From an uncultured virus (IMG/VR IMGVR_UViG_3300032288_003839) (taxonomy: Duplodnaviria > Heunggongvirae > Uroviricota > Caudoviricetes): a stretch of 62,281 nt of DNA. The DNA lies in the IMG/VR virus record IMGVR_UViG_3300032288_003839, one strand, 5' to 3'. Made by a program: the position numbers and the translations under genes. The notes under the pieces were generated by a model. That model did no database searches. It had not been told where the DNA came from and saw only the letters and a program-made list of their open reading frames with translations. Shown piece by piece: positions 12,712-59,839 of this stretch. Within the stretch, counting starts at the first letter, position 1; every line of letters starts with the position of its first letter.

Positions 12712-13113
12712 TTATTTGATTATTTTTTCTAGTTTGTGGTTTCTATCCCACTGAGTCATTAAACTCAAAAGGTGTTCATTTAAAAATGGGTCTTTGTTTT
12801 CTAAGGTTAGATCTTTGTTTAATTCAAACTCTTCAATGACAATTTCTCTAAAGTCTAATATATCACCATATCTAGCATTACGGTGCGAGTATTCTTCTGA
12901 CTCTTCCCATTCATCACCATATTCTAAATCTGTTTCACTGGGAACCCAGTCTTTTGGTTTATTGAAAACACTATACCTCTTTTCTTCATAGAAGTCTTCC
13001 CATTTTTTAGCAACATCTTCTGCTATTTTTTTATCAGTAAATAAACCAATAATTTTCCAAGATGTTGAATCATAGTTCTCAAAGTGAGAACGAACTATAT
13101 AAATACTATCCAT
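12712..13113 (-). CDS. Hypothetical protein with C-terminal RxxKL tag
   Basis: Ends DRNHKLEKIIK. Confidence 0.75.
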   Translation of the reverse strand: MDSIYIVRSHFENYDSTSWKIIGLFTDKKIAEDVAKKWEDFYEEKRYSVFNKPKDWVPSETDLEYGDEWEESEEYSHRNARYGDILDFREIVIEEFELNKDLTLENKDPFLNEHLLSLMTQWDRNHKLEKIIK

Positions 13114-13603
13114 TTAATAAATCATCTAAATTAGAATCTCTGATAACACCTGATTCCTTCATAACATCATCCCATATTTCTAAGAAGTTATCGGAGTTAA
13201 TTTTCTTAGTAATATCTTTAATATCATCAATTAAATCATTATACATGTTATCATCTTTATAAAATGACCTTTTGTTATATCCATGATTTACACTAAACCC
13301 ATCTTTAAATACCTCAATTCTTAAATAATTTTCTTCATTATATAATTGATTAGGTTTTGACCTACCACTCTTGATTAGAGTGAGGTCTTCGGTAGATATG
13401 GATATTCTAGAATCACTTACATCAAATCTTAAATTATTTTTATAGTTTGATAATGACAAAATCATTTTTTTGAATTTAGCACTAACCTCTGGATCATATT
13501 CACACCAGGAATATTCCTCTATTTTTTCAGGTACAGGTGAATTATAATTCCTAATCTCTTCCGTGATTATTTTAGCTATTTTTTTTAAATCTTTCTTTTT
13601 CAT
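13106..13603 (-). CDS. Hypothetical protein with C-terminal RxxKL-like tag
   Basis: Ends IRDSNLDDLLNG. Confidence 0.75.
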   Translation of the reverse strand: MKKKDLKKIAKIITEEIRNYNSPVPEKIEEYSWCEYDPEVSAKFKKMILSLSNYKNNLRFDVSDSRISISTEDLTLIKSGRSKPNQLYNEENYLRIEVFKDGFSVNHGYNKRSFYKDDNMYNDLIDDIKDITKKINSDNFLEIWDDVMKESGVIRDSNLDDLLNG

Positions 13604-14052
13604 TTCTTTTCAACTGGGTTATAGTTATAGTCAATTGTAATCCTATATCTTACTTTATATCTAAACCTAAAGATGTTAAATCTAATTGATGTTCTTTTAA
13701 CATTAACTTCAATTAAAACATCTTTGAATATTATTTTCTTTTCTTTTAAGAACTTTAAATAACTAGACATAAACTCATTTATATCCTCATCAGATATATA
13801 ATCATTTAAAATAAGAGTATCTATGTAATTTGACTTTATATGTTTATTATCACTTTTATCTAGTATAATTGATGCAACACTTTCAGTTTGTAAGTTACAA
13901 TCACATTCTGATATGGTTTCTAATCTATTGGTTCCTAAACTATCAAAATAATGATATAGTTCATCTTTAATAGACATTGCATAATAACTTTCACTATTTT
14001 GTGAAATAAGATTTGTAGTTATTAGTGAAAGGATAATAATTAGTTTTTTCAT
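13600..14052 (-). CDS. Putative exported protein
   Basis: Signal-like MKKLIIILSLITTNLISQ. Confidence 0.65.
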   Translation of the reverse strand: MKKLIIILSLITTNLISQNSESYYAMSIKDELYHYFDSLGTNRLETISECDCNLQTESVASIILDKSDNKHIKSNYIDTLILNDYISDEDINEFMSSYLKFLKEKKIIFKDVLIEVNVKRTSIRFNIFRFRYKVRYRITIDYNYNPVEKK

Positions 14053-14408
14053 AATAATTTTTCTAATTTATAATTTCTTAATTCAATTTTTGACCATTCT
14101 ATAAATTTTGGATCAAATCCATATATCTTATTCAATTCTTGATACAAAGTTGTAAAATCCAAATCTTTTAATTTATGACAAGCAAACAAATTAACACCAC
14201 CATATGTAAACTCAACCCATTGTTCTTGTTCACCGTGTTTATATCTGACTATATCAATTTCAATTTTACCCATACTAAAACCATTATACTTAGTTGGTAC
14301 TTGATTAAACACTTTTCCACTTTCATCAATCTCAATCATGTAACATGGTATTGTGACTTTGAAAAGTTCAGATTCCATTAGATAGTATTGTAACTCCCTG
14401 CCGCTCAT
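14049..14408 (-). CDS. Hypothetical protein with C-terminal RxxKL tag
   Basis: Ends LRNYKLEKLL. Confidence 0.75.
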   Translation of the reverse strand: MSGRELQYYLMESELFKVTIPCYMIEIDESGKVFNQVPTKYNGFSMGKIEIDIVRYKHGEQEQWVEFTYGGVNLFACHKLKDLDFTTLYQELNKIYGFDPKFIEWSKIELRNYKLEKLL

Positions 14409-14893
14409 TTATTAAGTATTTGAATAGCTTTATCTGTACAAATATTAGTCAATCCATAACCAATATCAACACAATCAGGATGATCCTGATTATCACTTGT
14501 TTTTACAAAGTTATTTTGTTGAGTAGAAAGCATATCATTATCATCATCTAAGATTACATAGTTAGTAACTTCTGAGTGTTCATCTAACCATTGTTGTATC
14601 TCATTCCCTCTTTCACATCTTTCATAGAAATCTAATCCTTCTTCATCTGGTTCCCAAGTTAAAGTGGTTATATCAATAACCTCACCGGGTATTCCTCTTT
14701 TAAACCACATTTCTTTCATAATATCAAGACCAGATGCCCTCCAAGTGCTACTAATAACTATTTTAGCTCCTGTTTCATCTACAATCCTTTTTAGATTATC
14801 TTCAAAATGTTTATGAAATAATGAACCATAGTCATCATGACCTTGTGGATAAACATTAAGAACACCGTCTATATCTAAAAATATTATTTTCAT
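14405..14893 (-). CDS. HAD-domain protein (Swiss-Army-knife RNA-repair type)
   Basis: IIFLDIDGVLN; AKIVISSTWR; RGNEIQQWL; YVILDDD.DM; GLT. Confidence 0.88.
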   Translation of the reverse strand: MKIIFLDIDGVLNVYPQGHDDYGSLFHKHFEDNLKRIVDETGAKIVISSTWRASGLDIMKEMWFKRGIPGEVIDITTLTWEPDEEGLDFYERCERGNEIQQWLDEHSEVTNYVILDDDNDMLSTQQNNFVKTSDNQDHPDCVDIGYGLTNICTDKAIQILNK

Positions 14894-14947
14894 ATCTACA
14901 AATATATAAAATATAATTAATATATAGTTTACAAATTAAGCATTTTT

Positions 14948-16387: not shown

Positions 16388-16774
16388 ATGAAATATTTAA
16401 AGTTATATGAATTATTCAGAACTGATGTTGATGATAGAATAGATGAGCTAAATGAAGAGTGGCAAAAAATATCTAATAAACTATATAAGGAAGGTATTTC
16501 AGTTAAAGCAAGCATTGGGTTAAGAGACTATACTGACATATCACTGTTTTTAATGGATATAAAATCATTAAAGAATACTCCAGGATTAGGAACTAAAGGG
16601 ATGAATGAATTGATATCATTCGCTGATAAGAATAATCTACCAACTTGGCTATTAGCATCATCAAACTATGGATCTGATTTAGATAGATTAGTTAAGTTCT
16701 ATGAAAAATTTGGATTTGTTTATGTTGGTGATTATTTTAATATAGGCAAAGAGATGTATAGAAAACCAAATTAA
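16388..16774 (+). CDS. GNAT-like acetyltransferase with N-terminal tag
   Basis: PGLGTKGMNELI..AD; LVKFYEKFGF; starts MKYLKLYELF. Confidence 0.65.
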   Translation: MKYLKLYELFRTDVDDRIDELNEEWQKISNKLYKEGISVKASIGLRDYTDISLFLMDIKSLKNTPGLGTKGMNELISFADKNNLPTWLLASSNYGSDLDRLVKFYEKFGFVYVGDYFNIGKEMYRKPN

Positions 16775-19830: not shown

Positions 19831-19883
19831 AAAATAAAAAATCCGAAAAATGAATTTTGCGATTAATTCATTATTTCGGATTT
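19831..19883 (-). terminator. Intrinsic terminator closing the candidate ncRNA
   Basis: Minus strand: aaatccgaaa..tgaatt..aattca..tttcggattt followed by a T-rich run. Confidence 0.7.
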
Positions 19884-20098
19884 CTTAACAAGATTTCAGA
19901 ATTCGCGGTTCATCCATCTTTATCATACACCTTTTAGTTCAACTGTGTCGGCATGACTGACACTAATCTACTGCGGGACCGACAGGTTTTTTGCCCCATA
20001 ACCTCGGTAAAGGTTATCCCATCTTTCATCACGAGTTACCGCAAGTGACTTATATGAGAATATTTGTTAGTTTGGTTTCGGTAAAACTTAATTACCTT
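19835..20098 (-). ncRNA. Candidate structured non-coding RNA (about 260 nt), family not recognised
   Basis: Own TATATTTG (20103-20110) and terminator; GC-richer than flanks; several stems; only a 31-codon ORF with atypical codons. Confidence 0.55.
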
Positions 20099-20129
20099 AT
20101 TACAAATATAAGGATAATTTTTTAAATAC

Positions 20130-20816
20130 CTAATAGTTTATCAAACCTATTTGAATATTAACATTGATATTTCTATTTTCATTCCACGGCATTGCTGACC
20201 CAGCTACTAAATATGATATATCAAAATATCCTCTTTTATATTCTAACATATTGACAAGACTATGCGATATATCATCTACTAAATTTGTTAATTCTTGCTC
20301 ATCAGTAGTTAGTTCAGATTTAAGTGATCTTATTCTTTTTTTAGTAATTTCATTTTTATCAAACTCACATCTTATTGATATATTACCTTTCCAATTTTCA
20401 TTTATCATTTTATGTAATGAAATTCTTATATCATGTTGATGAGGATCCACCTCATCATAAATATCATTCTCTAATGTTGTTAGTTCAAATCCCATATCAT
20501 ATAAGTCAACTAAAGATTCATTTATTATATGGATTTGATCCATACTCAAATTTTCTTTTTGATTAATAGATTCTTTAACCTTTGTGATACCCTTAGCTGG
20601 CTCTAAAAATCTCATATCAGATACTTCATTGGGTTTACCTTTTTTAATCTTCTTACCTTTTTTATCAAATAAATATGATGTTATATCTCCTGAGCCAGAT
20701 GTACCAGTAGTACCAGGTAAAGCACCTGGTTGAGCATTTGAAACTCCACCCATTCCAGCAGTTGACGCGGTAGCAACAGCATCTTCATTAAATTGTTTAT
20801 ATGTTTTAATCTTCAT
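20130..20816 (-). CDS. Hypothetical protein with N-terminal tag and Gly/Ala/Thr-rich segment
   Basis: Starts MKIKTYKQFNED, then ATASTAGMGGV..QPG..PG..G..GSGD. Confidence 0.75.
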   Translation of the reverse strand: MKIKTYKQFNEDAVATASTAGMGGVSNAQPGALPGTTGTSGSGDITSYLFDKKGKKIKKGKPNEVSDMRFLEPAKGITKVKESINQKENLSMDQIHIINESLVDLYDMGFELTTLENDIYDEVDPHQHDIRISLHKMINENWKGNISIRCEFDKNEITKKRIRSLKSELTTDEQELTNLVDDISHSLVNMLEYKRGYFDISYLVAGSAMPWNENRNINVNIQIGLINY

Positions 20817-21649: not shown

Positions 21650-22375
21650 ATGCCAAACTGGACATACAACAATTTAAGAATTTCAGGAAGTCCTGAAAAA
21701 ATGAAAGAGTTTTATTCTATTGCGATAAAACCAAATATCAATAATGAAATGTCATTTAGATTCTCTAACATTTTCCCAATGCCTGAGAAGATTAAAAACA
21801 CAGTCTCTCCTAGTTCTTCAGCCAGAAATGTCAAGTGGATGAATGAAGATAAGATAGCAGCTGAAAGAGAAAGTAAAATCAGTGATGTGTTAGGAATAGA
21901 ACCATCAGTTGTTTTAATTCCTTGTGAGAATAATACACCAGAAAAATGCAAAGAACTTATAAGAGAATATGGTTCCGATAACTGGTATGATTGGAATGTT
22001 TCAAACTATGGAACAAAATGGGATGTTGAAGAATTAGCACATGATATTGATATGTCAGATGATGAATTTGTATGTTCATTTGACACAGCTTGGTCACCTC
22101 CAGCAAACTTCTTAAATAAACTACAAGATAAATTTCCTGAACTAGATATTAGATGTTCCTATACATTAGAAGGTTCTGATGATTGTGGATTATTTGAAAC
22201 TTGTAGATATGAGGAAGATGGTAAACAAGTTGTTACTTTGGAACTTGAAGAGGCTGAAGCTAGAATTATATCCGGTGATGGTAGAGAAGTCTATATGAGT
22301 GAAGATGGTGATTATAAATATTGTGATAATGATGAAATCTGCGAAGATTGGTATACTGAAAACCCATTTGATTAA
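21650..22375 (+). CDS. DUF1281/YubB ferredoxin-like domain protein
   Basis: MPNW..N.L.I.G; WYDWN..NYGTKWD; FDTAWSPP; carries an internal tag-like ERESKISDVLGI. Confidence 0.8.
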   Translation: MPNWTYNNLRISGSPEKMKEFYSIAIKPNINNEMSFRFSNIFPMPEKIKNTVSPSSSARNVKWMNEDKIAAERESKISDVLGIEPSVVLIPCENNTPEKCKELIREYGSDNWYDWNVSNYGTKWDVEELAHDIDMSDDEFVCSFDTAWSPPANFLNKLQDKFPELDIRCSYTLEGSDDCGLFETCRYEEDGKQVVTLELEEAEARIISGDGREVYMSEDGDYKYCDNDEICEDWYTENPFD

Positions 22376-27344: not shown

Positions 27345-27651
27345 GATATTCTCATACGGAACTTTATATGACAAAGATATTCAACTATCTGAATTTGGAA
27401 CACATTTTCATGTAGAAGATGATATGGATTATATTGGCGGATATGATATAATTAAAGTTAAAATAAATGGTGAATGGTATAAGGTTGCTGTAGAATCTGA
27501 AACTAGTTTAGTTTCAGGTGCTATTGTTCATATACCAGAGTCACATATAGATTTGATAGATAAGTATGAGGGTAAAGAATATGAAAGAAAACCTATTACA
27601 ACTTTATCTGGTGTTGATTGTCAAATTTATATAAAGAGAGTAGATAAATGA
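27337..27651 (+). CDS. Gamma-glutamylcyclotransferase (AIG2-like)
   Basis: IFSYGTL; IDKYEG.EYER. Confidence 0.75.
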   Translation: MIKIFSYGTLYDKDIQLSEFGTHFHVEDDMDYIGGYDIIKVKINGEWYKVAVESETSLVSGAIVHIPESHIDLIDKYEGKEYERKPITTLSGVDCQIYIKRVDK

Positions 27652-27923
27652 GTTATATTAATCCACCATCAGATGAAATTTTAGAAGTGATTAGAAAACA
27701 CTTTGCTAAAGAATATGGAGTAAATCCAGGTAGAATAGAAATAGATTCAATTGAGTCTTATAAAAATGATGAAGGTGATTTAGAATATTATTTAAATTTC
27801 ACAATTGATTGGTATGGAAGTTATGAAGAGTATTGGGGTGAGATAACACACAATGAAGTGATTGAGGATATGAGAGATAATAAACTAAATAGCATATTAA
27901 AATATAATAACAATGAGAAGTAA
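27648..27923 (+). CDS. Hypothetical protein with C-terminal RxxKL tag
   Basis: MRDNKLNSILK near the C-terminus. Confidence 0.7.
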   Translation: MSYINPPSDEILEVIRKHFAKEYGVNPGRIEIDSIESYKNDEGDLEYYLNFTIDWYGSYEEYWGEITHNEVIEDMRDNKLNSILKYNNNEK

Positions 27924-30518: not shown

Positions 30519-31952
30519 ATGAAATCAGTAATTAAATTATTAGTTTTAGTTTGTATTTTTTTAATCTCTTCTTGTAGTAACAATAAACATGAAGAAAAAA
30601 GATGGGTTAGAAAAAATATACATACCACTGAAGCTAAGAAAGATGTAGAAGCACTTAACAAAGCTTTACAAATCATGAGATCTAAAGATTGTTCTGATCC
30701 ACTTAGTTGGTATTATCAAGGAGCAATGCACTGGATCCCCGATACTATAAAGAATAATCAACTTTGTAGTTGGTATCACAATGTAGGTGATGTAAAAGAA
30801 GGATGGGACAATTGCACTCACACACCAAGTGGTCAAGAGAAAATTCACTTCTTAATTTGGCACAGATTATATATCTATCATTTTGAAAAAATTGTTAGAA
30901 AATTATCAGGATATGAAGACTTTGCACTTCCGTATTGGGATTACACAGCATCTGGAGATAATAAAAAACTACCTGAAATGTTTAGAGATAAAAATAGTTC
31001 ATTATATGAACCAGCTAGATATGAAAATCTAAACAATGGTGAACCTGTTTCCGGTGAGATTGAAAGAGCATTAGACTTAACTAAATTAATGTCTTATACA
31101 AACTTTAAAATGTTCAGTAATAATATGAATAATGCACCACACGGAGCAATGCATGATTATATTGGAGCTGGAAATGATACAACAGGAACTCTTCAATTTA
31201 ACAATTCAATTACTGGTACAGTTACAAATACTGGTTTAATGGGTTGGGTTCCAACCGCGGCATTTGATCCAATCTTCTGGACACATCATTCTAATATTGA
31301 TAGACTTTGGCAACAATGGACAAATTCTGAAAATGGTAAATTAGTTACACTAGAAGAATTAAAATCAGCTGACTGGCCTTATATTTTCTTTGATGAAAAT
31401 GGGCAGAAGGTTACTTATACAATGGATAGCATTATTAAAATAATTTATACAATGGATTATGATTTTGATGATACTAAAGTAATGAGTAAGGAACAAACTC
31501 AACTAGTTAAATGTACTAAACCAGAGATAGTGGCTTCTTCTAATACAAGTGTTACCATAAATAGTCAAATAACAGATGCTGTTACTCAAATGGTTCCAAG
31601 ATTAACTTCTACAACTACAACAAATAATAAATTAACTATGACTTTAGTTGTATCACTTACAAAGGTACCTAAGGGTGTTTATGAGGTTTATGTTAATCAA
31701 TCTAAAACAGAAAAGATACATCCAAGTAATAAAAACTTTGCTGGGTATATGACTTTCTTTGGAGCGGATCATAAAATGGTCGGAGAATCTTGTGAGAAAG
31801 GTTGTTGTCGTCAACTAAGTAAATCAGGAAGACCACAATTTACTTTTGAATATGAGATTGATGCCAGTGATTCATATAATGTTTCAATATACAAACATAA
31901 TGGAAAACATACAGGTGATTTAACTATTGAAAGTATTACTATTACTAAGTAA
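30519..31952 (+). CDS. Tyrosinase / polyphenol oxidase family lipoprotein
   Basis: Lipobox-like LISSC; CuA site AMHW...CTH...FLIWHRLYI; LPYWDY; CuB site PHGAMH...AAFDPIFWTHHSNIDRLW. Confidence 0.93.
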   Translation: MKSVIKLLVLVCIFLISSCSNNKHEEKRWVRKNIHTTEAKKDVEALNKALQIMRSKDCSDPLSWYYQGAMHWIPDTIKNNQLCSWYHNVGDVKEGWDNCTHTPSGQEKIHFLIWHRLYIYHFEKIVRKLSGYEDFALPYWDYTASGDNKKLPEMFRDKNSSLYEPARYENLNNGEPVSGEIERALDLTKLMSYTNFKMFSNNMNNAPHGAMHDYIGAGNDTTGTLQFNNSITGTVTNTGLMGWVPTAAFDPIFWTHHSNIDRLWQQWTNSENGKLVTLEELKSADWPYIFFDENGQKVTYTMDSIIKIIYTMDYDFDDTKVMSKEQTQLVKCTKPEIVASSNTSVTINSQITDAVTQMVPRLTSTTTTNNKLTMTLVVSLTKVPKGVYEVYVNQSKTEKIHPSNKNFAGYMTFFGADHKMVGESCEKGCCRQLSKSGRPQFTFEYEIDASDSYNVSIYKHNGKHTGDLTIESITITK

Positions 31953-37085: not shown

Positions 37086-37142
37086 ATTAAAAATTTTCTA
37101 ATTTTCTTATATATTAAAAAACAATCCTTATATTTGTAATCT

Positions 37143-37754
37143 ATGAAATTGAATTTTAAACAAAAGGAATTATTCGAATGGAAATACAAACGCCAACCTA
37201 AAGTGTGGTCGATTGAGCAAGTTCATAACCTTTATTTAAAAACTTTAGAAAGACATAATATCAGACAAAAAAAACTACTTGATGTTAGAGATAGAATTGT
37301 TAGTGAAGTAGAAGAATTTGAAAAAGGTAAAAGAAAAGTTTATTTCACCAAAGATGATAAGATTTATCAAAGAGAGTTTAACTATTATTTAGAGTATGAT
37401 AGCTGGGGAACTTCTTGGGATGTTCTTAAATTCACATCAGATAAAACTATTTTTAGCAGAGACCAAAAGTTGGAATTTCTTTTATCAAATGATAAACAAT
37501 TTGAATTAGGTGAGTTATATGAAAGTTTAAAAGGTAATACAAAATGTTTACATCATTATATATGGCATGTTCTTTCTGAAATGGTTGAAGAAAAACTAAG
37601 AGTGGAATTCAAAGGTAAAGACTCACCAGAGATTTTAACTATTGATATATCTGGTCATAAATATTATGTTGTTTGTGATAAACAACACATGTATAATAGA
37701 TTCTATAAGAAATTTGAATTAAAAAATAAAGAAGCTGAACCTATAGAAATATAA
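37143..37754 (+). CDS. Hypothetical protein with internal RxxKL tag
   Basis: SRDQKLEFLL in mid-protein; TATATTTG upstream. Confidence 0.7.
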   Translation: MKLNFKQKELFEWKYKRQPKVWSIEQVHNLYLKTLERHNIRQKKLLDVRDRIVSEVEEFEKGKRKVYFTKDDKIYQREFNYYLEYDSWGTSWDVLKFTSDKTIFSRDQKLEFLLSNDKQFELGELYESLKGNTKCLHHYIWHVLSEMVEEKLRVEFKGKDSPEILTIDISGHKYYVVCDKQHMYNRFYKKFELKNKEAEPIEI

Positions 37755-37756
37755 AT

Positions 37757-38200
37757 ATGGAAATATCATTAATCATACTATCATTCACCTTATTACTGAG
37801 TATTATATTCATTTTTAGATTATATACAATTAACTCAGAATTAAAATCTGAAAATGATAAATTAAAATCAGAAGTAGATAAATCTAAAAAGGATAAGGAA
37901 GAACTTGTTTCAATTGATCCAGGTGATAGAGCAATTATTCCAAATTATGGAATGATACAAACAGACACAAAAGAGTCATTTAAAGTTACTTATGAAGTTG
38001 AGATAGTAGAGGTATCTGTGGATAAAGTAAAAGTTAAAGCCATTGATTTCACATCAAATGATAAATTTGCAAAAGATCCAAAACATAAAAATGCTATAGT
38101 AGATTTTATGAAAGATAAATGGATCTCAAAAAAAGATATTGAATTGATTGTTGATGATTCAATGCGTAGAGATGCTAAACTTCAAGAAATATTAGGATGA
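37757..38200 (+). CDS. Membrane-anchored protein with C-terminal RxxKL tag
   Basis: N-terminal TM, coiled coil; ends RRDAKLQEILG. Confidence 0.75.
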   Translation: MEISLIILSFTLLLSIIFIFRLYTINSELKSENDKLKSEVDKSKKDKEELVSIDPGDRAIIPNYGMIQTDTKESFKVTYEVEIVEVSVDKVKVKAIDFTSNDKFAKDPKHKNAIVDFMKDKWISKKDIELIVDDSMRRDAKLQEILG

Positions 38201-38733
38201 TAACAACAATACATATAGTTGAGAATTCAAATGGTGAACTGGAAATAGTTGACTCAAGTAAACTAAAAGGAGGAGGCCCTTCTCATAGCTATACAATCCG
38301 TAAGAGGTACTTTGATGAAGATGGTGAATCATCCTACTATGATGAGTTTGTTAATATTAAACACACATTTAAAGTTATAACAAGTGGTGAATTCATTCTT
38401 AATGATAATGACACCTCTAATCTAAATGCTTATAATATGACTTCTGGGTTAGGACAGATTAATAAATTAGCTTATGCTTATTCAGCTACTATTCTTATCA
38501 TAGTTGGAACTACTAATAAATTATGGAATAATGATGTTGTTTATACTGAATCAGGAATTAAAGAAACCAGATTTGACATGTATTCATATCATGTAAATGA
38601 ACCTAAACAAAGATATTTAGAAGATAGATTACCATATGAAGTTTATGATAATTTAGATTTCACTAATATCTTATCAAAATATCTAAGCACGTCATTTATT
38701 AGAAATTCTAAAATAGATGAAATATTAAAATAA
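38197..38733 (+). CDS. Hypothetical protein with C-terminal RxxKI tag
   Basis: Ends IRNSKIDEILK. Confidence 0.75.
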   Translation: MITTIHIVENSNGELEIVDSSKLKGGGPSHSYTIRKRYFDEDGESSYYDEFVNIKHTFKVITSGEFILNDNDTSNLNAYNMTSGLGQINKLAYAYSATILIIVGTTNKLWNNDVVYTESGIKETRFDMYSYHVNEPKQRYLEDRLPYEVYDNLDFTNILSKYLSTSFIRNSKIDEILK

Positions 38734-42714: not shown

Positions 42715-42805
42715 AGTTAAAATAATTTTTGTTATATATAATTTTTAATTAATATAAATTCATATATTTGTTAAATGAAGAAGTCAGAAGTTAGACCAAT
42801 TAGGG

Positions 42806-44371
42806 TTATAAACCAAATCTAGATTTAGTTAAGTTCCAAATAGAACTAATTTGTCCAGAAACTAATGATACATCATAGATATCTACTTTAGCTAATTTAC
42901 CATCCCAATAATCAGGATTGTCCCATCTTCTCATCAGTCTAATTCCACCTTGAGATGATATTGATGTACCTGAGTAATTAGAACTTGCAACTAAAGTGTT
43001 ATTTACATATAATTTATTTGAAACACCATCATAAGTACCAACAATGTAGTACCAGTTATTAGGAGTTAAGCTATAAAGACCACTTGTTCTCCATCCACCA
43101 TCAAAGAATCCTGAGCTTATACCATTACTGTAGTTATCACCTATTGAATAGTTTATTTGACCTGCAATCCCAGGATAGACTTCAGTCACAATACACATAC
43201 CAGATCCCACATTATTACCAGTATAATAATGCCAAACACCAACCGACCATTGACTTAAGTTAGGTAGACTTGTATTAGTTTGAGCATATTGAGCACTAGA
43301 TGCGTTAAATGTAAAATAACCACCATTACTAGATGACCAACTTGGACTATTATATAATGTGAATTGCTTTCCTCCAATGGAATCTACCCAACTACCACTA
43401 GTGTAATCAGCAGCATCTAATGATAAAACAGGAGTTATATAAGAAGTCCAATAACCATGTGTATTTAACCAATTCTTAGCAACCAAGGAATCAGAAAATG
43501 TAGGACCAGAATTATATCTAGCTGAAACATAATTTGCTAAAGATACAAAAGATTCATCATTTAATGTATTAGTTCTTAAAAAACCAATTGATGCTGTTTT
43601 ATTTCCTAAAAAATTATAACCTGAAGGATAACCATATTTTGGATAATTTAATATAGTCATTTCACCATATATAGTTGGGCAAAGTGCTGGGTAAAAAGAA
43701 TTTAATCCAGCCATTCCTAAACTACCACTATCTGTTGATGGGTTCTGACTCACATCATTATTCCAGTAACCACCATTTACTCTTATCCAGATTTTAGGTG
43801 ATGCTCCTATACTAATAGCAATATCAATAATATCACCACTAGTCCATGTTGGTAATCCAGATGCTTGTACACTTCCATTAAAATAATATTTACCATCATC
43901 AGAGAATCCAAGGCTTTGAGTATCATTTCCAGGATACGCACCAAAAGGATTTCCTTGATAATTCATTGAATGTCTTCCAACACCTATAGCTCTAGATCCA
44001 ACACCAACTGGTGGATTAGAAGAGGTGAATCTTACACTAAACATCACCTTATCAGTACCTGATATTAATGTTGAACCTAAAACAGATTGTTGATATGAAA
44101 ATATCTGAGTAGCGGTCTGATTTGAATTACTAAGAGAGATATCAGTAGCCTTGTGAGTCGGATCTAAATAAAGACTGTCTTCTGGAACTGGAGTATATTG
44201 GTTATTTAAAGGAGAAGGAATAGCAATAACATATCCAGTTGATTCGTCTGGGCCTATCCAATAATTTAATTCACCAAATCCAGCAGTTGGATATCCAACA
44301 GATACACTACCTACTTGAATTGTTCCTGATACTGTTACACCATTTGGGTTATATGCGAAAGGTCTAGACAT
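42806..44371 (-). CDS. Putative virion fibre/adhesin: split N-terminal module with SPRY-like insert, plus LamG domain
   Basis: SRPFAYN..GYVIA..SFV.LAN..WL..GYWTSY; GDIIDIA..IW.RVNG; WYYIVGTYDG..LYVN; final LamG strand IYD. Confidence 0.75.
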   Translation of the reverse strand: MSRPFAYNPNGVTVSGTIQVGSVSVGYPTAGFGELNYWIGPDESTGYVIAIPSPLNNQYTPVPEDSLYLDPTHKATDISLSNSNQTATQIFSYQQSVLGSTLISGTDKVMFSVRFTSSNPPVGVGSRAIGVGRHSMNYQGNPFGAYPGNDTQSLGFSDDGKYYFNGSVQASGLPTWTSGDIIDIAISIGASPKIWIRVNGGYWNNDVSQNPSTDSGSLGMAGLNSFYPALCPTIYGEMTILNYPKYGYPSGYNFLGNKTASIGFLRTNTLNDESFVSLANYVSARYNSGPTFSDSLVAKNWLNTHGYWTSYITPVLSLDAADYTSGSWVDSIGGKQFTLYNSPSWSSSNGGYFTFNASSAQYAQTNTSLPNLSQWSVGVWHYYTGNNVGSGMCIVTEVYPGIAGQINYSIGDNYSNGISSGFFDGGWRTSGLYSLTPNNWYYIVGTYDGVSNKLYVNNTLVASSNYSGTSISSQGGIRLMRRWDNPDYWDGKLAKVDIYDVSLVSGQISSIWNLTKSRFGL

Positions 44372-49490: not shown

Positions 49491-49533
49491 CTTTAGTGTT
49501 GTATATATTAATTTAATTAATTATATTTGTAAT

Positions 49534-49737
49534 ATGAACCCTTCATGTAGAAATTGCATTTACTTTAAACAAAAAGAAAGTAATGATGGTTGGTATAATA
49601 CAAGAACAATGTATTCTTGTGAATATCATAATCTAAATAAAGGCGAAGTAAATCACCCAGACTCACAAAGGTGTGAAGATTGGGTAGATATAAAAGTAAA
49701 ATTAAGAAACGAGAAAATAGATAAAATATTAAAATGA
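49534..49737 (+). CDS. Cys-rich small protein with C-terminal RxxKI tag
   Basis: Start revised to 49534, 4 nt after TATATTTG; CRNC..C..C; ends LRNEKIDKILK. Confidence 0.75.
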   Translation: MNPSCRNCIYFKQKESNDGWYNTRTMYSCEYHNLNKGEVNHPDSQRCEDWVDIKVKLRNEKIDKILK

Positions 49738-50345
49738 ATTATATAAAATACCTACTATCATTTATTAAAGAACTTATTTTCAATAATAAGATTAAGTTTA
49801 TATTTATAATAATAGCAAGTGTCTTGTTCTACTATGCTGGAACAATACCAAACTCTATTGAAAGCAATAAGATTGTAAAAGAAATTCAAATTGATGATAA
49901 AGTATATCTCTATGTTAGAAGCTCTGTTCAAAATAATCAAATAAATTATGATATTATTCAATCTGATAGACCACAAAAAGTAACTAACGGTATACTACTC
50001 ACATCTGAATATCACGGTGGTAATGTTGCTATGTGGGTTCTATTTGGTATAATATCTCTCGTTTTATTTATATTTACAGTAGTAACATGGGGTGAATCAG
50101 AAGGTTGGGAAATAAATGACTGTTTAGAAAAAGCTTTTCTATCTTTAGTAGAATGCGAATTTGAAGATGGTAAATATTATTATACCTGTTGTGGTAAATT
50201 GTTGGGTATAAAAGAACATAAAGTAACTCACCAATATATCTTGGGTGAGTTTAGAGTTAGAGGATTTGATGAATTAAAGACTTGTCCAAAATTTGAAACT
50301 AAGTCTCAAAGAAGAGAGAAAAGTCTAAAAGAATTAGGAATATAA
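49734..50345 (+). CDS. Two-TM protein with C-terminal tag
   Basis: Ends RREKSLKELGI. Confidence 0.75.
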   Translation: MNYIKYLLSFIKELIFNNKIKFIFIIIASVLFYYAGTIPNSIESNKIVKEIQIDDKVYLYVRSSVQNNQINYDIIQSDRPQKVTNGILLTSEYHGGNVAMWVLFGIISLVLFIFTVVTWGESEGWEINDCLEKAFLSLVECEFEDGKYYYTCCGKLLGIKEHKVTHQYILGEFRVRGFDELKTCPKFETKSQRREKSLKELGI

Positions 50346-50686
50346 TGTTATATTTAATTAGTTACATAAGCGGTGATGTCTCTGGTCATTATGATGAACT
50401 TTATGCTGTAGAAGGCCATTTTAAAACCACTGAAGAGTTATTAGAATATGCTAATCTCCTGGACATTAACTTGTTTTCAGTCAGAAAGATATCGGGATTT
50501 AGCACTCAATTTAAATTTAGATGGGTAGAGTATAGAGGTGATAATTACAGATTTGATTATATTTATATTTTTGATGATAGTGTAACATCAGATATTATTA
50601 TCAATGGTGATTTAGAAAAAGTAGTTAGTGATTATATTAAATCAAATTTAAGAGAAGATAAATTAAATGAATTAGGTATAAAATGA
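50345..50686 (+). CDS. Hypothetical protein with C-terminal tag
   Basis: Ends LREDKLNELGIK. Confidence 0.75.
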   Translation: MLYLISYISGDVSGHYDELYAVEGHFKTTEELLEYANLLDINLFSVRKISGFSTQFKFRWVEYRGDNYRFDYIYIFDDSVTSDIIINGDLEKVVSDYIKSNLREDKLNELGIK

Positions 50687-50883
50687 TCACTGTTATATGT
50701 GTAAAAATAAATACTGATTTTAAACATCATCTACAACTAAAGGTAGGTAATAAATACCTTGCTAAAACTTCATATAATGGTGGGTATGTAATATATGATT
50801 TAAATGAAAAATATATTGGAAGTTATCACTTTGATCAATTTATAACATTAAGAGATTACAATTTAGATAAATTATTAGAATGA
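50683..50883 (+). CDS. Small VxC family (SH3-like) protein with C-terminal tag
   Basis: MITVICV...L.VG.KY; ends LRDYNLDKLLE. Confidence 0.7.
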   Translation: MITVICVKINTDFKHHLQLKVGNKYLAKTSYNGGYVIYDLNEKYIGSYHFDQFITLRDYNLDKLLE

Positions 50884-51278
50884 AAATTAATATAGAATAT
50901 AAAGAAGGAAAAGATATAGGAAAACCCAATTGGAGAATTAGTATATCAAAATCCGGATCAAAGATAACTATTAAGACAGAGAATTTTGAACAGGGATTTC
51001 GAGATGGTGAATGGTGGGATAATGTATTTGCTACTAAGAATGGCAGTGATACTTATGAAAATTATGTAACTGTTATTACAAAAGATAAATCAAAATTAGA
51101 AACTTTCAAGCCACTAATCATAGATAAATTCTACGAAATATTAGAATATAATATTAAACATCATCAGTCAGAAATTAAAAGATTAAATGCTTATGTTAAT
51201 AATTATAAAGATTGTTTAGTTTCCGATTTATTCAAAGATAAAATAAGAGAAGATAAATTAAATGAATTGGGGATTTAG
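50880..51278 (+). CDS. Hypothetical protein with C-terminal tag
   Basis: Ends IREDKLNELGI. Confidence 0.75.
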   Translation: MKINIEYKEGKDIGKPNWRISISKSGSKITIKTENFEQGFRDGEWWDNVFATKNGSDTYENYVTVITKDKSKLETFKPLIIDKFYEILEYNIKHHQSEIKRLNAYVNNYKDCLVSDLFKDKIREDKLNELGI

Positions 51279-51909: not shown

Positions 51910-52392
51910 ATGAAACTATCAGAAATAGAATTACAAATAGCGACTAATAAAAACGCTATGAGAGAATTACAAAATCAAATTTCTAAACTATCTACTAGTA
52001 CATCGGGATTAGAAAGATTAAAAGAAAGCATTAAATTAAAAAACTTTGTAGAGTACATTGAGATAGGTAACACCTATGAGTTCAATTCATATACTTATTT
52101 ATCTGGTATTGAGAGCGGATCAAAAACAGGATTAGATCCTAATTTTGTAAAAGGTGATGTGATAGAAATTATCAAAAAGAACAAAATGTCTATTGTTATT
52201 AAATGTATCAAAAAGATTTCTTCAACAAGAGATAGTAATAATATGAGAGTTTTGTCAGAATCAAATCCAAATGCTCAATTTAGAATTGATATACAAAGTT
52301 TATACAATTACATGATAAGAGACCCACAATTTTCAGATGGTCTTAAAATATACTATAAAAGAAAAGAAGCTTTATCTGAATTAGGAATATGA
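51910..52392 (+). CDS. Hypothetical protein with C-terminal tag
   Basis: Start revised to 51910; ends KRKEALSELGI. Confidence 0.75.
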   Translation: MKLSEIELQIATNKNAMRELQNQISKLSTSTSGLERLKESIKLKNFVEYIEIGNTYEFNSYTYLSGIESGSKTGLDPNFVKGDVIEIIKKNKMSIVIKCIKKISSTRDSNNMRVLSESNPNAQFRIDIQSLYNYMIRDPQFSDGLKIYYKRKEALSELGI

Positions 52393-52592
52393 AAACTAAA
52401 GTAATATGTATTCACACTGGTAGAGTTCCAAGTTTAACTTTACATAAAATATATGATGGGTTTATATATGAACCACCTGCTACCACAATTCAAGTTGTTG
52501 ATGATAGTGGTAGAGTTAAAACATATAAAGGTGAAAGGTTTATGAGGTTAGATGAATTTAGAGAAAATAAGCTAAAACAATTAGGGATATGA
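52389..52592 (+). CDS. Small VxC family (SH3-like) protein with C-terminal tag
   Basis: MKTKVICI...LTLHKIY...VVDD.G; ends FRENKLKQLGI. Confidence 0.75.
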   Translation: MKTKVICIHTGRVPSLTLHKIYDGFIYEPPATTIQVVDDSGRVKTYKGERFMRLDEFRENKLKQLGI

Positions 52593-52966
52593 CAAGAGAA
52601 GATTTTATAAACTTTATTGAGGAATTAGGATTTGACCAAACCTGGCAGTCAAATCCTAATTACTATATCCTTTATACTGATAAGATTGGAATTGGATTGT
52701 CCAATAATCAACTGAGTAGATTTGATATGTTGAGTGTTACAATAAATGATGAATATGGAATTGCTCAACTCGCACTTTCACAAATGAGTAGTGTTATGAC
52801 GGCTGGTAAAAACTTTGGTAACTTTAGTTTAAAAACATTCGGTCAGAAAGATGATTTCCAATTGGAAATATTTATGAGTTTTATTAAATCTTCTTTTAAT
52901 AAATTACCAAATACTATTACTCAATATATGAGAGATATGAATATTAAAAATATTTTAAATGATTAA
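52589..52966 (+). CDS. Hypothetical protein with C-terminal tag
   Basis: Ends MRDMNIKNILND. Confidence 0.7.
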   Translation: MTREDFINFIEELGFDQTWQSNPNYYILYTDKIGIGLSNNQLSRFDMLSVTINDEYGIAQLALSQMSSVMTAGKNFGNFSLKTFGQKDDFQLEIFMSFIKSSFNKLPNTITQYMRDMNIKNILND

Positions 52967-53558
52967 AATACATAAGTTAGAAGATGGTGATATCATTAAG
53001 ATATTACCTTTTATTGATAAGGATGATAAAATCACCTGGTGTAAAGATTATACCTGTACTGTTATTAATAAACAATCAATCTATGATAATAGTGATAAAC
53101 AATATCTAAGAAGAATATCACACACTCTTTATAGAAATGATGGTGATGTAAAACTACCAGTTCAAATTAGATATGCCTATAATATCTATATTGGTGGTGA
53201 AATTAAAATAATGAATGTTAGTAGAACTATACAAGATATTATAAGTAATAACCCAGATGTATTAGACATCAGAAGTAATAAACATCTGAATATTGTTCAG
53301 GAAATGAAATCTGGATTTCCATCTTGGGAAAAGTCTTATATTAAAGATAATAATTGGGCACCACCAGTTAGTGATATCAATTCTAAAGATGAATGGTATT
53401 CATTTATCAAAACAAACCAACCAGACTTTGACTCACATATAGAAAGTAATAATATATTTGTTCATAAACAAAAATTAGTAAAGTTCTTAGGATCAGATAT
53501 GTTAGGTGATTTAATATCTGATGATAGACAAAAGAAATTAGATAAATTAGGAATATGA
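52959..53558 (+). CDS. Possible divergent T4 gp32-like ssDNA-binding fold with C-terminal tag
   Basis: IKILP...RYAYNIYI..EIKIM....I..II...L.IV.EMKSGFPSWEKS; ends DRQKKLDKLGI. Confidence 0.45.
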   Translation: MIKIHKLEDGDIIKILPFIDKDDKITWCKDYTCTVINKQSIYDNSDKQYLRRISHTLYRNDGDVKLPVQIRYAYNIYIGGEIKIMNVSRTIQDIISNNPDVLDIRSNKHLNIVQEMKSGFPSWEKSYIKDNNWAPPVSDINSKDEWYSFIKTNQPDFDSHIESNNIFVHKQKLVKFLGSDMLGDLISDDRQKKLDKLGI

Positions 53559-53782
53559 AATTTAAAATAGGTGATAAGGTAATAGTTAATCCAAAAATCA
53601 ATCTACCATCTAAGGCAAATTACAAAGGAGTGATTATTAATATTAAAGAAGATGCTATTTGGCCCTACTTAGTAGAATCATATGGTTATATGGGTAAACA
53701 TGAAGAAAACTTTAATCATAAAGATCTAACCTTAGATATAGAAGAAATTAGAAATGAGAAATTAAAACAATTAGGAATATGA
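53555..53782 (+). CDS. KOW/SH3-like small protein with C-terminal tag
   Basis: MKFKIGDKVIV...G.I.....WPYLVE; ends IRNEKLKQLGI. Confidence 0.75.
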   Translation: MKFKIGDKVIVNPKINLPSKANYKGVIINIKEDAIWPYLVESYGYMGKHEENFNHKDLTLDIEEIRNEKLKQLGI

Positions 53783-54012
53783 TTAATGCTAAAGTAAAAA
53801 TATTTAATGAGGAATATGCTCACTCATTAGAAAAAACAATTAATGTTTTTCTAAAAACAATTGATGTCCGACAGATTATTAAAACAGAATACTCAAGTAG
53901 TGTTTCTGCTGGTCAATATAACACAATCAAGTCACACTCTGCCGTTATCTATTATGTAGATTTTGAAGATATAAGAGGGGCTAAAATTGATAGTGTATTG
54001 GATATTAAATAA
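53779..54012 (+). CDS. Small protein with C-terminal tag
   Basis: KVKIF.....LE..IN.FL; ends IRGAKIDSVLDIK. Confidence 0.7.
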   Translation: MINAKVKIFNEEYAHSLEKTINVFLKTIDVRQIIKTEYSSSVSAGQYNTIKSHSAVIYYVDFEDIRGAKIDSVLDIK

Positions 54013-54359
54013 TGGAAACACTACAAGACATAGAATATAAATACATATCTGATATTGTAAAATTCTTTTGTAAATCATATGTAGAATTGTATGGTCCTAA
54101 TAAACCTAATGCAATTAAAGATTTAATAATGAAACAACTAGATAATAGATTGATTAAGTCAAGTCTAATCAATAACTATGTGGTATCAACAAACATTCTA
54201 TCTACAATAGAAAGAAGAGATTTAGTATTAGATAATTTAGTAAATAATTCTGATAATGATATAGAAGAACATGTAGATGTTTATATTGAACACAGAAGAG
54301 GAATATTCTACTCCTTTAGATACAATCTAAAAGATAGTAGTTTTATTGTAACACCTTAA
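54012..54359 (+). CDS. Hypothetical protein with internal tag-like motif
   Basis: ERRDLVLDNLV. Confidence 0.65.
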   Translation: METLQDIEYKYISDIVKFFCKSYVELYGPNKPNAIKDLIMKQLDNRLIKSSLINNYVVSTNILSTIERRDLVLDNLVNNSDNDIEEHVDVYIEHRRGIFYSFRYNLKDSSFIVTP

Positions 54360-56098: not shown

Positions 56099-56190
56099 AA
56101 AACTAAAAAAGATATTTGGATAGATAAAAGGGCATTCATATCATTAGAAGAATTTAGACAGTCAAAATTAGATAAAATATTAAAAAATGA
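56099..56190 (+). pseudogene. 3' remnant of a C-terminally tagged gene
   Basis: ...KTKKDIWIDKRAFISLEEFRQSKLDKILKK*, ATGA-coupled to 56187; no ATG start or promoter. Confidence 0.5.
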
Positions 56191-56471
56191 GATATAAAAT
56201 AGTTAAACATTATTATACACATAATGATAAAGTAACAGAGTTATTCTATGTTATGTATGAGAAAAAAGTTTGGTGGAAAAAAGAACTTGTTTGGAGACGT
56301 TGTAAAGAAAACAATTATGACTATAAAAAAAATGTTTATAGAAATACTTTAAAAGAAGCCGAAGATTATATCTTACTTCAAATGAAAATTGACAATGGTG
56401 ATTTCGATCCAGAAGATATTAAGATATATGAATGTAGAGATTCTAAATTAAATAAAATACTTAGTGAATAG
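56187..56471 (+). CDS. Hypothetical protein with C-terminal tag
   Basis: Ends CRDSKLNKILSE. Confidence 0.75.
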   Translation: MRYKIVKHYYTHNDKVTELFYVMYEKKVWWKKELVWRRCKENNYDYKKNVYRNTLKEAEDYILLQMKIDNGDFDPEDIKIYECRDSKLNKILSE

Positions 56472-56481: not shown

Positions 56482-56685
56482 ATGAAAGTTATTTGTATCA
56501 GACAGAATCCCGGTAGAGAACCTCAACCCCAATTAGGTCAAGTATATAATGCCGAAATTATAGAAGTTAAAACACCCGATAGAGCGTCAGATTATATGTA
56601 TCATATAAAAGAAGTAAACATGACTTATTCTAATTATTGGGTTATTCCACTAAGAGATTATAACTTAGAACTAATTAATAAATAA
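56482..56685 (+). CDS. Small VxC family (SH3-like) protein with C-terminal tag
   Basis: MKVICIR...LGQVY; ends LRDYNLELINK. Start could instead be 56464. Confidence 0.65.
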   Translation: MKVICIRQNPGREPQPQLGQVYNAEIIEVKTPDRASDYMYHIKEVNMTYSNYWVIPLRDYNLELINK

Positions 56686-57838: not shown

Positions 57839-58577
57839 TCTTTAGTTTTAAAAAATTTTTTGTCTTATCCAGTAAGTATTTAGGAAGAGCATTACCAACA
57901 AGAGCATATTTATTCTTAATATCTCTACCTAATTCTTTAGCACTAAAAAAATTACCAGATAACTTTACTTCATACTTTTTACCTCTATAATTAACAGTAA
58001 CTATATAATCATAAAATCCAGAACCACTCGGTTGCACATCAATAACTTTAATTAATTCTATTTCTTTGAAAGCTCTACTAATTAATTCTGACTTTTCTTT
58101 AGTCATCTTATCTTGATATTCCATCATAATCAACTTAGCATCATCTGGAATAGATTTAATTCTATCCACAATCTCTCTCTTCTTTTCTGACTGCCAATCA
58201 ATATAGAATGGATCATCATTATTTCTAGCTCTAAAAACATCATATGAAAGTAATTCACCATCCACTATACCACCTTGACCCCAATGAGTACCACCTGAAT
58301 AAGAACCTAATTCAGATGCCATTTGTGGAATATAATCCCAAGTTAATCTTAACTTATAACCATCCTTGAAATTGATACGGTACATATTAGCAGTTTTATT
58401 ATGACCATAGAATGCACCACGATTAGATGAACACCAACTTGTTCCTTTATTTTGTTGTTTAGTAGAATCAAATGTCTTAGACACCTTAACTTCAAGATTC
58501 TCATCTTTGTAAAGAGTAGGAGTATTTTGCTCAGTTTCAACAAACTCAAATAATTTATAAGTTATTAGGTATTTCAT
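57816..58577 (-). CDS. Hypothetical protein with N-terminal tag
   Basis: Start revised to 58577 (MKYLITYKLFE); GTSWCSS motif. Confidence 0.75.
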   Translation of the reverse strand: MKYLITYKLFEFVETEQNTPTLYKDENLEVKVSKTFDSTKQQNKGTSWCSSNRGAFYGHNKTANMYRINFKDGYKLRLTWDYIPQMASELGSYSGGTHWGQGGIVDGELLSYDVFRARNNDDPFYIDWQSEKKREIVDRIKSIPDDAKLIMMEYQDKMTKEKSELISRAFKEIELIKVIDVQPSGSGFYDYIVTVNYRGKKYEVKLSGNFFSAKELGRDIKNKYALVGNALPKYLLDKTKNFLKLKNEKNKNI

Positions 58578-58649
58578 TGGAGTATATATTAATAAGGAAA
58601 AAGATATTTTAATTTTATATATATAGTATATAAAAAATAATAATAAATT

Positions 58650-59177
58650 ATGGCAGGTGGTCAAATATATAATGCAGCATTTGTAACAGGTTCACCAGCA
58701 GCACCAACTGGAGCTGAGGTTGTAGGAAATATATTAGTGGTTACTTTACCAAACTCATTTACATCATGGACATCATATCCTATTGTAGGTGGTATATTAT
58801 CAACATATGATTCTAGTGGATATGTTATTATATCAGATAGTACAACAGCCGGTGTTATCGGTAGAACTACTGGTAATAATACAACAAATCCAATTAATGC
58901 ACCTGCAGGAACTGAGATAGCTGACAAGCCAACTTTTTGGGTTTCTAATGCTAAAACCTCTGCTTCATTTTTAGATTTAGTAAATAAATTACCACCATCA
59001 ACAGCTGTTGGATATAATGTTAGTGGTACTACACCTCCAGGTGGTAGACCATTCTTTGATAATGGTGACCCAGGAACTTATAATCTTCCAGCTTTACCCA
59101 ATTTTCCTTATGCTAACGCATATGATGCAGCTAGAGACTGGTTAAAAATTAATGGTTATTGGACTTCTTACCCATAA
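58650..59177 (+). CDS. Stand-alone copy of the N-terminal module of the 44371/48452 fibre proteins
   Basis: GNILV; GYVII; FW.S..KT..SFLDLVNK; A..WL..NGYWTSYP. Confidence 0.75.
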   Translation: MAGGQIYNAAFVTGSPAAPTGAEVVGNILVVTLPNSFTSWTSYPIVGGILSTYDSSGYVIISDSTTAGVIGRTTGNNTTNPINAPAGTEIADKPTFWVSNAKTSASFLDLVNKLPPSTAVGYNVSGTTPPGGRPFFDNGDPGTYNLPALPNFPYANAYDAARDWLKINGYWTSYP

Positions 59178-59189
59178 ACTATAAATATT

Positions 59190-59218
59190 AAAACCTACTT
59201 TATAAGTAGGTTTTTTTT
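59190..59218 (+). terminator. Intrinsic terminator
   Basis: aaaacctactt-tat-aagtaggtttttt. Confidence 0.85.
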
Positions 59219-59246
59219 ATATAGATATAATCCATATATTTGATTC

Positions 59247-59600
59247 ATGATTGCCAAATTAAAACTAGAAGATATATTCATAGTTAATGGATCCATTGTC
59301 CTATGCGGACCCATTGAAGAAGGCGAAATTACCTTAAACTCATTTGTTAAATTAAATGATTTTTTAATACCTATAAGTAGAATAGAAAGATTTAGAAAGT
59401 TTGTAACTAAAGCAGAAAAGGGAGATAACCCAGGATTATTCTTAGATACAAGTTTTAATCATCTTATGAGATTAGATAGTAATGAAGGTAGAGGTAAAAC
59501 TCAATTTGATGAATTAGTATTTAAAAGGAGTAATACTTTATTAAGTATAATTGATATTACCGAATTAAGAAATGAAAAACTAAACCAATTAGGTATATGA
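59247..59600 (+). CDS. Stand-alone EF-Tu domain II-like protein with C-terminal tag
   Basis: LEDIF.V.GS.VL.G.IEEG.I.L...V...I..IE.FRK....A..GDN.GL.L; ends LRNEKLNQLGI. Confidence 0.7.
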   Translation: MIAKLKLEDIFIVNGSIVLCGPIEEGEITLNSFVKLNDFLIPISRIERFRKFVTKAEKGDNPGLFLDTSFNHLMRLDSNEGRGKTQFDELVFKRSNTLLSIIDITELRNEKLNQLGI

Positions 59601-59839
59601 GAATAAAAGTAAAATGTATATCAAACAATTCTGGATTTCACCAACGACTTGAAAGAGGCAAATGGTATGAAGTAGAAGAATATTGCAGTATAAGTGGTAA
59701 TACTGATAAATATATTGTACATGGATTGGGCAATAAAGAACATCATTTAGATGCTGATTATGGGGTTTATGATAAATCATTATTTCTTACCTTAGAAGAA
59801 TGCCGAGATAGAAAAATTAATAAAATATTAAATTACTGA
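59597..59839 (+). CDS. Small VxC family (SH3-like) protein with C-terminal tag
   Basis: MRIKVKCI...LE.GK.YEV; ends CRDRKINKILNY. Confidence 0.75.
   Translation: MRIKVKCISNNSGFHQRLERGKWYEVEEYCSISGNTDKYIVHGLGNKEHHLDADYGVYDKSLFLTLEECRDRKINKILNY

Follow-up and report, generated by a model that had tools for sequence, protein, structure and literature searches.

A C-terminal arginine-anchored motif shared by unrelated early-type proteins of T4-like Bacteroidota megaphages

Tagged genes of the window

The stretch of DNA analysed here, referred to as the window, is the whole 62,281-nucleotide (nt) record IMGVR_UViG_3300032288_003839 of IMG/VR, part of the genome of an uncultured giant freshwater phage of the Caudoviricetes. 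It has a guanine-cytosine content of 29%, carries no transfer RNA gene and contains about 110 genes after curation. A short peptide motif, hereafter the tag, ends 22 of these 110 genes, and these are exactly the open reading frames (ORFs) that had been listed in an original prediction made from the DNA letters alone. The consensus is best written as R-[DENQ]-x-K-[LI]-x-x-[LI]-[LG] or a close variant, the arginine being the sole invariant position. This residue is located 9–16 residues before the stop in the window genes, and the core may be followed by 0–7 further residues. The net charge is above zero in 16 of the 22 tags.

The tagged ORFs 12712..13113 (133 amino acids (aa), weak DUF7336 match, tag Arg at position 12744), 13106..13603 (165 aa, Arg at 13141, with a tagged homologue in phage LR756502) and 14049..14408 (119 aa, Arg at 14078) are on the minus strand; those that follow are on the plus strand. 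ORF 27648..27923 (91 aa) has its tag Arg at 27873, with seven extra residues behind the tag. ORF 37757..38200 (147 aa) has an N-terminal hydrophobic segment and belongs to a family of six tagged proteins, and ORF 38197..38733 (178 aa), with a predicted β-rich fold, to a family that is tagged in one clade only. The main tagged run is headed by a promoter-like element, TATATTTG, at 49522..49529, 4 nt upstream of the ATG of a Cys-rich ORF (49534..49737, 67 aa). Then come 49734..50345 (203 aa, two hydrophobic segments, a family of seven tagged proteins), 50345..50686 (113 aa), 50683..50883 (66 aa, SH3-like by eye), 50880..51278 (132 aa), 51910..52392 (160 aa, with a divergent tag in which Ala replaces Lys), 52389..52592 (67 aa, with tagged homologues in LR756502 and in the related genomes G003 and G005 introduced below) and 52589..52966 (125 aa). 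They are followed by 52959..53558, a copy of the core domain of gp32, the T4-type single-stranded DNA-binding protein, by 53555..53782 (75 aa), for which the Atlas neighbours are unnamed viral clusters and an SH3-like fold is a lead only, and by 53779..54012 (77 aa), which matches the Pfam family Spore_Cse60 (E 4e-9). Around 56 kb lie a tagged remnant frame of 42 codons with a tagged homologue in LR756502 (56069..56197), an ORF of 94 aa (56187..56471) and one of 67 aa that is convergent with the next gene (56482..56685). The last two are 59247..59600, the first gene after the TATATTTG at 59235 and a lone copy of EF-Tu domain 2, and 59597..59839 (80 aa), the last of its run, with a homologue in LR756502.

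Internal copies that had been proposed in three further plus-strand ORFs are present, with lower scores on a position-specific scoring matrix: 1.7 in the DUF1281_C-family protein 21650..22375 (tag-like copy, Arg at 21866), 8.7 in 37143..37754, the first gene of a TATATTTG-headed run (Arg at 37458), and 9.0 for the divergent copy in 54012..54359. Terminal copies score from 3.2 to 27. A by-eye idea that 54012 is a piece of sheath protein was not supported when checked. A tag remnant of 10 codons and a stop, with no in-frame start, is found at 42779..42811 (plus strand), just 3′ of the TATATTTG at 42763. The segment 42763–42811 looks as though an intervening gene body had been deleted.

The K/L/I/N-rich composition of the proteins had been named as a trivial explanation, and the C-terminal excess lies far above shuffled controls. 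A loose pattern occurs in the last 18 residues of 22 of the 110 curated genes, compared with 0.13 expected from the internal rate. The maximum was 3 in 2000 shuffles of whole proteins and 4 in 5000 shuffles of the last 18 residues. A strict pattern is found in 14 of the 110 genes, with a shuffle maximum of 1. Pfam and PHROG scans of the 110 window proteins and 443 tagged proteins revealed no common family on the tag, although a ten-residue motif can escape the HMMER filters. The tag profile had three chance-level matches in the PDB, the best with an E-value of 1.5.

Occurrence in related phages

As the pattern was derived from the window proteins themselves, independent support comes from other genomes, in which it recurs. 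One tag subtype, searched as a DNA pattern, was found in 49 IMG/VR stretches, on contigs of up to 483 kb. The scan of related large phages that had been suggested at the outset was carried out, and the tag recurs in three T4-like Bacteroidota megaphage genomes and in phages LR756502 and LR745206. The three genomes are near-complete IMG/VR records (G001, G003 and G005; a further record, G004, is the same phage as G001). The loose pattern ends 51 of 643 ORFs in G001, 92 of 514 in G003 and 44 of 402 in G005, and with a profile set at a false rate of 1% the tagged ORFs number 74, 113 and 65, respectively, or 11–22%. G001 provides the closest match for many window genes (up to 84% identity). Its capsid protein is of the T4 gp23 type and is 73–78% identical to those of LR756502 and LR745206, the 635–642-kb freshwater phages that are placed beside Mar_Mega_1 in PMC9723777.

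A stop-anchored DNA pattern matched 52 times in LR756502 (control 2), 15 times in LR756504 (control 8), 4 in LR756501 (control 4), 2 in Lak-A2 (control 5) and once in PTm1 (control 2). A stricter DNA pattern gave 26 matches in LR745206 (control 0) and one each in LR756500 (control 1) and LR756508 (control 0). In LR756504, a variant R-K/x-x-K-I is found in 20 of 110 ORFs in 50 kb. De novo searches for tail motifs, each over 100 kb, gave none above shuffles in LR756508 or LR756500; the same search missed the DPYGEE motif of LR756501 described below. A host class of tag was discarded, the Flavobacterium olei genome giving 10 pattern matches against 7 in the control. The tag is real and lineage-wide.

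Promoter-like elements and gene runs

The element TATATTTG, which we take to be the Bacteroidota −7 promoter element, occurs 21 times in the window (shuffle mean 11.9, maximum 20). By script, 17 of the 22 tagged genes were assigned to TATATTTG-headed runs, two to positions after a late-type AT element and three to neither class. ORFs 37757 and 38197 were counted with the TATATTTG runs as both directly follow 37143, which has a TATATTTG at 37129. By this reading 19 of 22 tagged genes are in such runs. These genes are probably expressed early in infection. Thirty-one early-type window genes have no tag.

The late-type element AATATATA is found within 45 nt upstream of none of 187 tagged ORFs of G001, G003 and G005, versus 275 untagged ones. 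An MKYLK-type N-terminal leader is found on genes behind AATATATA (in the window, for example, at 16388, 16793, 20806, 22587, 25308 and 48657) and presumably resembles a capsid-loading signal. As had been claimed, no tagged gene bears it. The T4 internal proteins are also addressed by one short peptide common to many unrelated proteins, the capsid targeting sequence, which is N-terminal, late and clipped in the head. The tag is like it in addressing many unrelated phage proteins. Identity of the two is ruled out by the C-terminal position of the tag, by the 0 of 187 tagged ORFs with AATATATA and by the separate N-terminal leader, which never co-occurs with it.

The distance from the end of TATATTTG to the ATG is only 4–6 nt in 10 of 13 cases (genes at 6146, 14405, 21088, 26852, 36002, 37143, 40678, 49534, 51531 and 59247), so that the early transcripts may be leaderless or nearly so.

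The tag as a protein module

The tag could be a DNA or RNA element, such as a recombination site or a translational-coupling signal, that merely resembles a peptide. GGA and ATA are slightly over-represented before TGA at tag ends, which points that way, as does coupling in G003, which is somewhat more frequent for tagged genes (49/92) than for others (133/413); the start-less remnant at 42779 also fits. The codon excess itself fits start-stop overlaps. The core pattern at gene ends is found 92 times in frame and never off frame, and pairs of tags with the same residue share the codon in proportions of 0.54, 0.43 and 0.64, compared with 0.54, 0.39 and 0.59 expected from genome usage. Since the tag is always in frame and its codons are near the genome background, selection acts on the protein and not on the DNA, counter to the refuting condition that had been set on this point. 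In addition, 43 of 185 tagged genes are not followed by a gene on the same strand. A nucleic acid element is therefore largely refuted, with barely any probability left to it.

Structure models of 52959 and 38197 both end in a helix formed by the tag (residues 181–196 and 165–177, respectively), with a predicted local distance difference test (pLDDT) score of about 90. Of the original prediction, the helix is supported as a portable feature that acts at the protein level and occurs on unrelated proteins of early type. Tag helices might also bundle together and make a multivalent library without a separate reader. The regular Leu/Ile spacing and the helix in both models are consistent with such bundling, but a helix of only about three turns with an invariant Arg and a modest hydrophobic moment (mean 0.20) is not what it calls for, and a Pro/Gly-containing acidic tag takes its place in LR756501. 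Self-association is highly improbable.

The history of one family illustrates the modularity. Of 39 relatives found for 38197, 31 went into an alignment with it, and the tree omits one truncated row. A branch with support 94/95 (midpoint root, bootstrap not converged) holds 11 tagged rows out of 12, P0141 and P0147 being among the family members that bear the tag. Outside this branch, 19 of 19 rows end where the tag would start. The tree fits a single putative gain of the tag on a pre-existing body. Although the model of 38197 is confident, it had no fold match at E ≤ 0.001 (best Z 4.7), and the Atlas gave no usable match.

The tag is also found inserted inside bodies, in loops. A 377-aa nucleotidyltransferase-like protein in a relative (L073:14602-15735) has two internal copies, and a 615-aa protein (L039:2784-4631) is a longer, tagged form of a 397-aa protein that has no tag itself. 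The body and the tag, as a handle, are considered separable modules, because the 38197 family is tagged in one clade only and because LR756501 puts the unrelated handle DPYGEE on the same pieces of capsid and portal. There is good support for reading the tag as a portable handle.

Identity of the bodies

The 461 tagged proteins cluster into 331 families, 269 of which are singletons. The bodies are therefore unrelated, as originally predicted, and a shared paralogous tail of one family is ruled out. Most families remained unnamed after the Pfam scan (143) and the PHROG scan (300 of 317 non-window representatives). A hydrophobic segment is present in 31 of 594 tagged proteins. The bodies that can be identified, of about 12 types, are shortened versions of core proteins of the phage and the host.

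In the window, the EF-Tu-like and gp32-like resemblances noticed earlier were both confirmed. ORF 59247 (117 aa) is a lone EF-Tu domain 2 (residues ~5–68, profile E 1.4e-4) followed by the tag, without the GTPase domain or domain 3. At E ≤ 0.01, 10 of the 11 PDB matches of its profile are EF-Tu, over residues ~216–283, and the other is archaeal Pbp11. Homologues of 117–154 aa were found (lengths of 64–205 aa were searched), and 17 of 17 are tagged. ORF 52959 had no sequence match in Pfam, PHROG or the PDB, and only the fold search succeeded. The model (pLDDT 93.5 in one of five models) retrieved gp32 chains only with Foldseek (E 1.7e-5 to 2e-4), and superimposed on gp32 with Z-scores of 9.6 and 9.5 and a root-mean-square deviation of 4.1 over 167 aligned residues, the next unrelated structure having a Z-score of 4.7. 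Its residues 1–180 form the gp32 core. The protein has 199 aa, with the tag instead of the acidic arm, whereas the phage's own gp32 has 317–335 aa and an acidic tail. Among its 391 homologues, 118 of the 120 listed have the tag pattern.

In the relatives, tagged bodies include a family B polymerase palm of about 215 aa (E 6e-5), a portal clip piece, acyl carrier copies, a head-protease piece and copies of the ClpC M-domain (three of three small matches tagged). The capsid protein is represented by pieces of at least four of its regions. A capsid profile run against 2211 small ORFs (26% tagged overall) gave 12 matches, of which four were set aside as limited to a low-complexity N-terminal stretch. 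Of the other eight, five have a terminal tag, one has an internal tag and two have an internal variant seen only on reading. Nine partial Gp23 loci were found in the record G002 and in LR756502 and LR756504, with a tag-like element in the eight of eight that were read. The tag is absent from 16 of 16 full-length core proteins of G001. Pieces of tail-sheath C-terminus, tail tube and terminase are weak leads in relatives (PHROG E 0.006–0.05; pairwise E 8e-4 to 0.003).

An all-against-all fragment count at E < 0.001 showed no enrichment (10 of 578 tagged versus 104 of 1683 untagged); most of the untagged matches listed were truncations at tile edges or paralogues with a common leader. The fragment test against named core proteins has low sensitivity, because gp32, portal, sheath and polymerase queries recovered no known mimic.

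Over the matched pieces, the capsid and portal fragments have 22–56% identity with their G001 counterparts, and are thus not recent self copies. This would suit fragments that poison the assembly of capsid, portal, tail and replisome of co-infecting relatives, with the tag routing trapped parts to a sink. Such interference does not account for the EF-Tu, acyl-carrier and ClpC M-domain copies; it has no known rival target, and we regard it as very unlikely.

A second handle

Phage LR756501 (735 kb) has the Arg tag in none of 148 ORFs in 100 kb. Instead, exact matches coding for DPYGEE are found 109 times (control 0); LR756502, LR756504, LR756500 and Lak-A2 have none. In the 36 proteins read, the consensus continues as DPYGEE-x-W, an acidic, Pro/Gly-containing motif. 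It is located at the C-termini of small proteins, behind N-terminal leaders and inside large proteins, and lies at least 30 residues from the protein end in 24 of the 36. The loci are L206, L219, L220 and L223–L252. The bodies comprise capsid segments ~427–478 and ~508–570 (G001 numbering) and the portal clip region, the same as with the Arg tag, and also a head-protease piece. The two lineages thus combine the same pieces with unrelated handles.

The distribution of both handles bears on the possibility that the tag is an address label, docking diverse early takeover proteins on one scaffold, such as a membrane hub or a replication factory, the miniatures being ordinary paralogues or assembly modulators without a link to defence. 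Such a label would account for bodies that are mostly varied and unmatched, some of them with a hydrophobic segment, for a tag that works at the end or in loops, and for the presence of DPYGEE on leader-bearing late-type proteins as well. It leaves unexplained the concentration on capsid, portal, protease, polymerase, gp32, EF-Tu and acyl carrier protein, and the tagging of the same capsid and portal segments in two lineages. This explanation is somewhat unlikely. The SPFH protein of the window was rejected as a shared hub, since it has no match in the five related IMG/VR records.

Phage ClpC and ClpP

A ClpC without its N-domain is encoded by all five IMG/VR records (G001 and G004, which are the same phage, G002, G003 and G005) and by LR756502, with 73–84% identity among them (loci L066:15339-17453, L077:7826-9994, L095:13802-15922 and L114). 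ClpP is found in three of the five records, with two genes each in G001 and G003. The nearest sequences to the phage ClpC are those of Bacteroidota (up to 77% identity), which points to this phylum as host. The gene set common to the tagged phages includes DnaK, DnaJ and GrpE as well as ClpC. Since the tagged phages carry a host-derived ClpC lacking the N-domain, ClpC-ClpP, either the host enzyme or the phage ClpC, is the lead candidate for a reader of the tag, a possible assignment that is on balance doubtful.

The simplest use of such a reader would be a plain degron that times the removal of early proteins by Clp or another AAA+ protease, without bait function. The C-terminal site, the hydrophobic end, the restriction to early-type genes and the chaperone and Clp genes of the shared set are all in keeping with it. 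However, up to seven residues may trail the core, copies are also found inside proteins, and the 31 untagged early-type genes of the window would escape; nor does a degron say anything about the miniature bodies. We consider it quite unlikely.

Other features of the window

The cluster at 6952–10530 (a GAF-PAS histidine kinase, a YceI protein and a response regulator) is conserved in G001 with 51–84% identity and constitutes a phage-borne two-component system. Host-like proteins are encoded at 11401–12711 (adenylosuccinate synthetase), 3066–3896 (class II synthetase-like, possibly asparagine synthetase A) and 30519–31952 (tyrosinase domain). The start of an untagged leader-bearing ORF at 20130–20816 weakly matches the capsid protein in its low-complexity N-terminal stretch (E 7e-4). 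About 300 nt at 19840–20100, behind a minus-strand TATATTTG (20103), are gene-free and of higher guanine-cytosine content, possibly a structured RNA.

Discussion

The tag is very probably read by a single shared partner. It would then be a short helical docking handle, recognised early in infection, which the phage adds to a large and fast-changing library of small proteins. The best reading, which we hold tentatively and a little short of an even chance, is that these are counter-defence baits sharing one handle. The bodies would mimic targets that defences watch or attack (capsid, portal, head protease, DNA polymerase, gp32, host EF-Tu and acyl carrier protein), and each could bind a sensor or effector of a defence system ahead of the genuine late proteins. 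The handle would pass the bait complex to a common sink, for which ClpC-ClpP is the leading candidate. The decoy role of the bodies, taken by itself, is evenly poised.

The bait reading is favoured because the identified bodies follow published lists of triggers and targets. In the relevant passages of PMC13581612, capsid, portal and DNA polymerase are among the direct triggers of STAND sensors, and EF-Tu is a cofactor of Avs7 and a target of Lit and of type IV Thoeris. The prohead protease is mentioned in connection with CBASS escape in PMC13728456. The overlap with Avs/STAND triggers concerns the host side of the conflict; those passages of PMC13581612 mention no phage decoys of these triggers.

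Several observations weigh against baits. Only 2 of the 22 window bodies are identified (59247 and 52959), most of the 331 families have no match, and the confident model of 38197 matched nothing clearly. Capsid-like ORFs without a tag exist in LR756501 (L210) and G003 (L093:1199). Avs sensors read folded cores across wide interfaces, according to section 12 of PMC13581612, while capsid pieces of 30–50 residues may fail to fold, and a faithful mimic could trigger a sensor instead of blocking it. DPYGEE is also carried by late-type proteins. As to the sink, LR756508 has an N-domain-less Clp ATPase yet a single tag-pattern match, and the Clp of LR756501 retains its N-domain.

A more elaborate form of the bait reading is a modular counter-immune degrader, in which up to about 100 baits per genome would tile sensor epitopes and a lineage-specific handle would recruit Clp, so that sensors would be destroyed before the structural genes are expressed. 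We judge this unlikely. Among eukaryotic viruses, poxvirus ankyrin-PRANC/F-box proteins and viral BC-box adaptors combine a variable binding domain with a shared docking motif at the terminus, through which a destruction machine is recruited. They belong to the ubiquitin system and use one repeat fold, and the likeness to the tag is an analogy without homology.

Two phage systems also resemble the tag. The sliding-clamp-binding motif of T4 gp43, gp55 and gp33, as described in PMC2988020, is likewise a short C-terminal sequence that can be exchanged between unrelated proteins and docks them on a single partner. There it is hydrophobic-acidic and found on three core proteins, in contrast to a basic helix on dozens to more than 100 accessory proteins. 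Identity with this motif was rejected on the invariant Arg and the positive net charge of 16 of 22 tags, set against that description, and also on the two full-length PolB-like ORFs of G001, both of which are untagged, only miniature palm copies being tagged. SPO1 Gp53, an early adaptor-like phage protein that redirects host ClpCP, is a model for the proposed sink. It is one protein for which binding was shown (PMC6873191), unlike the present library, whose link to Clp is a prediction.

No description of the Arg tag, of DPYGEE or of tagged core-protein pieces was found in the literature, papers on these genomes included, in a search whose scope excluded subscription papers, the original huge-phage paper and supplements; the Lak taxonomy preprint contains neither 'motif' nor 'C-terminal'.

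Sister lineages that differ in their handles provide a built-in control. If the bodies are baits, the library lists the phage and host surfaces that are watched by Bacteroidota defences, unknown ones included. Should the degrader form be true, the system would be a prokaryotic counterpart of the viral ubiquitin-ligase adaptors, and the unmatched bodies would be a catalogue of targets recognised by defences.

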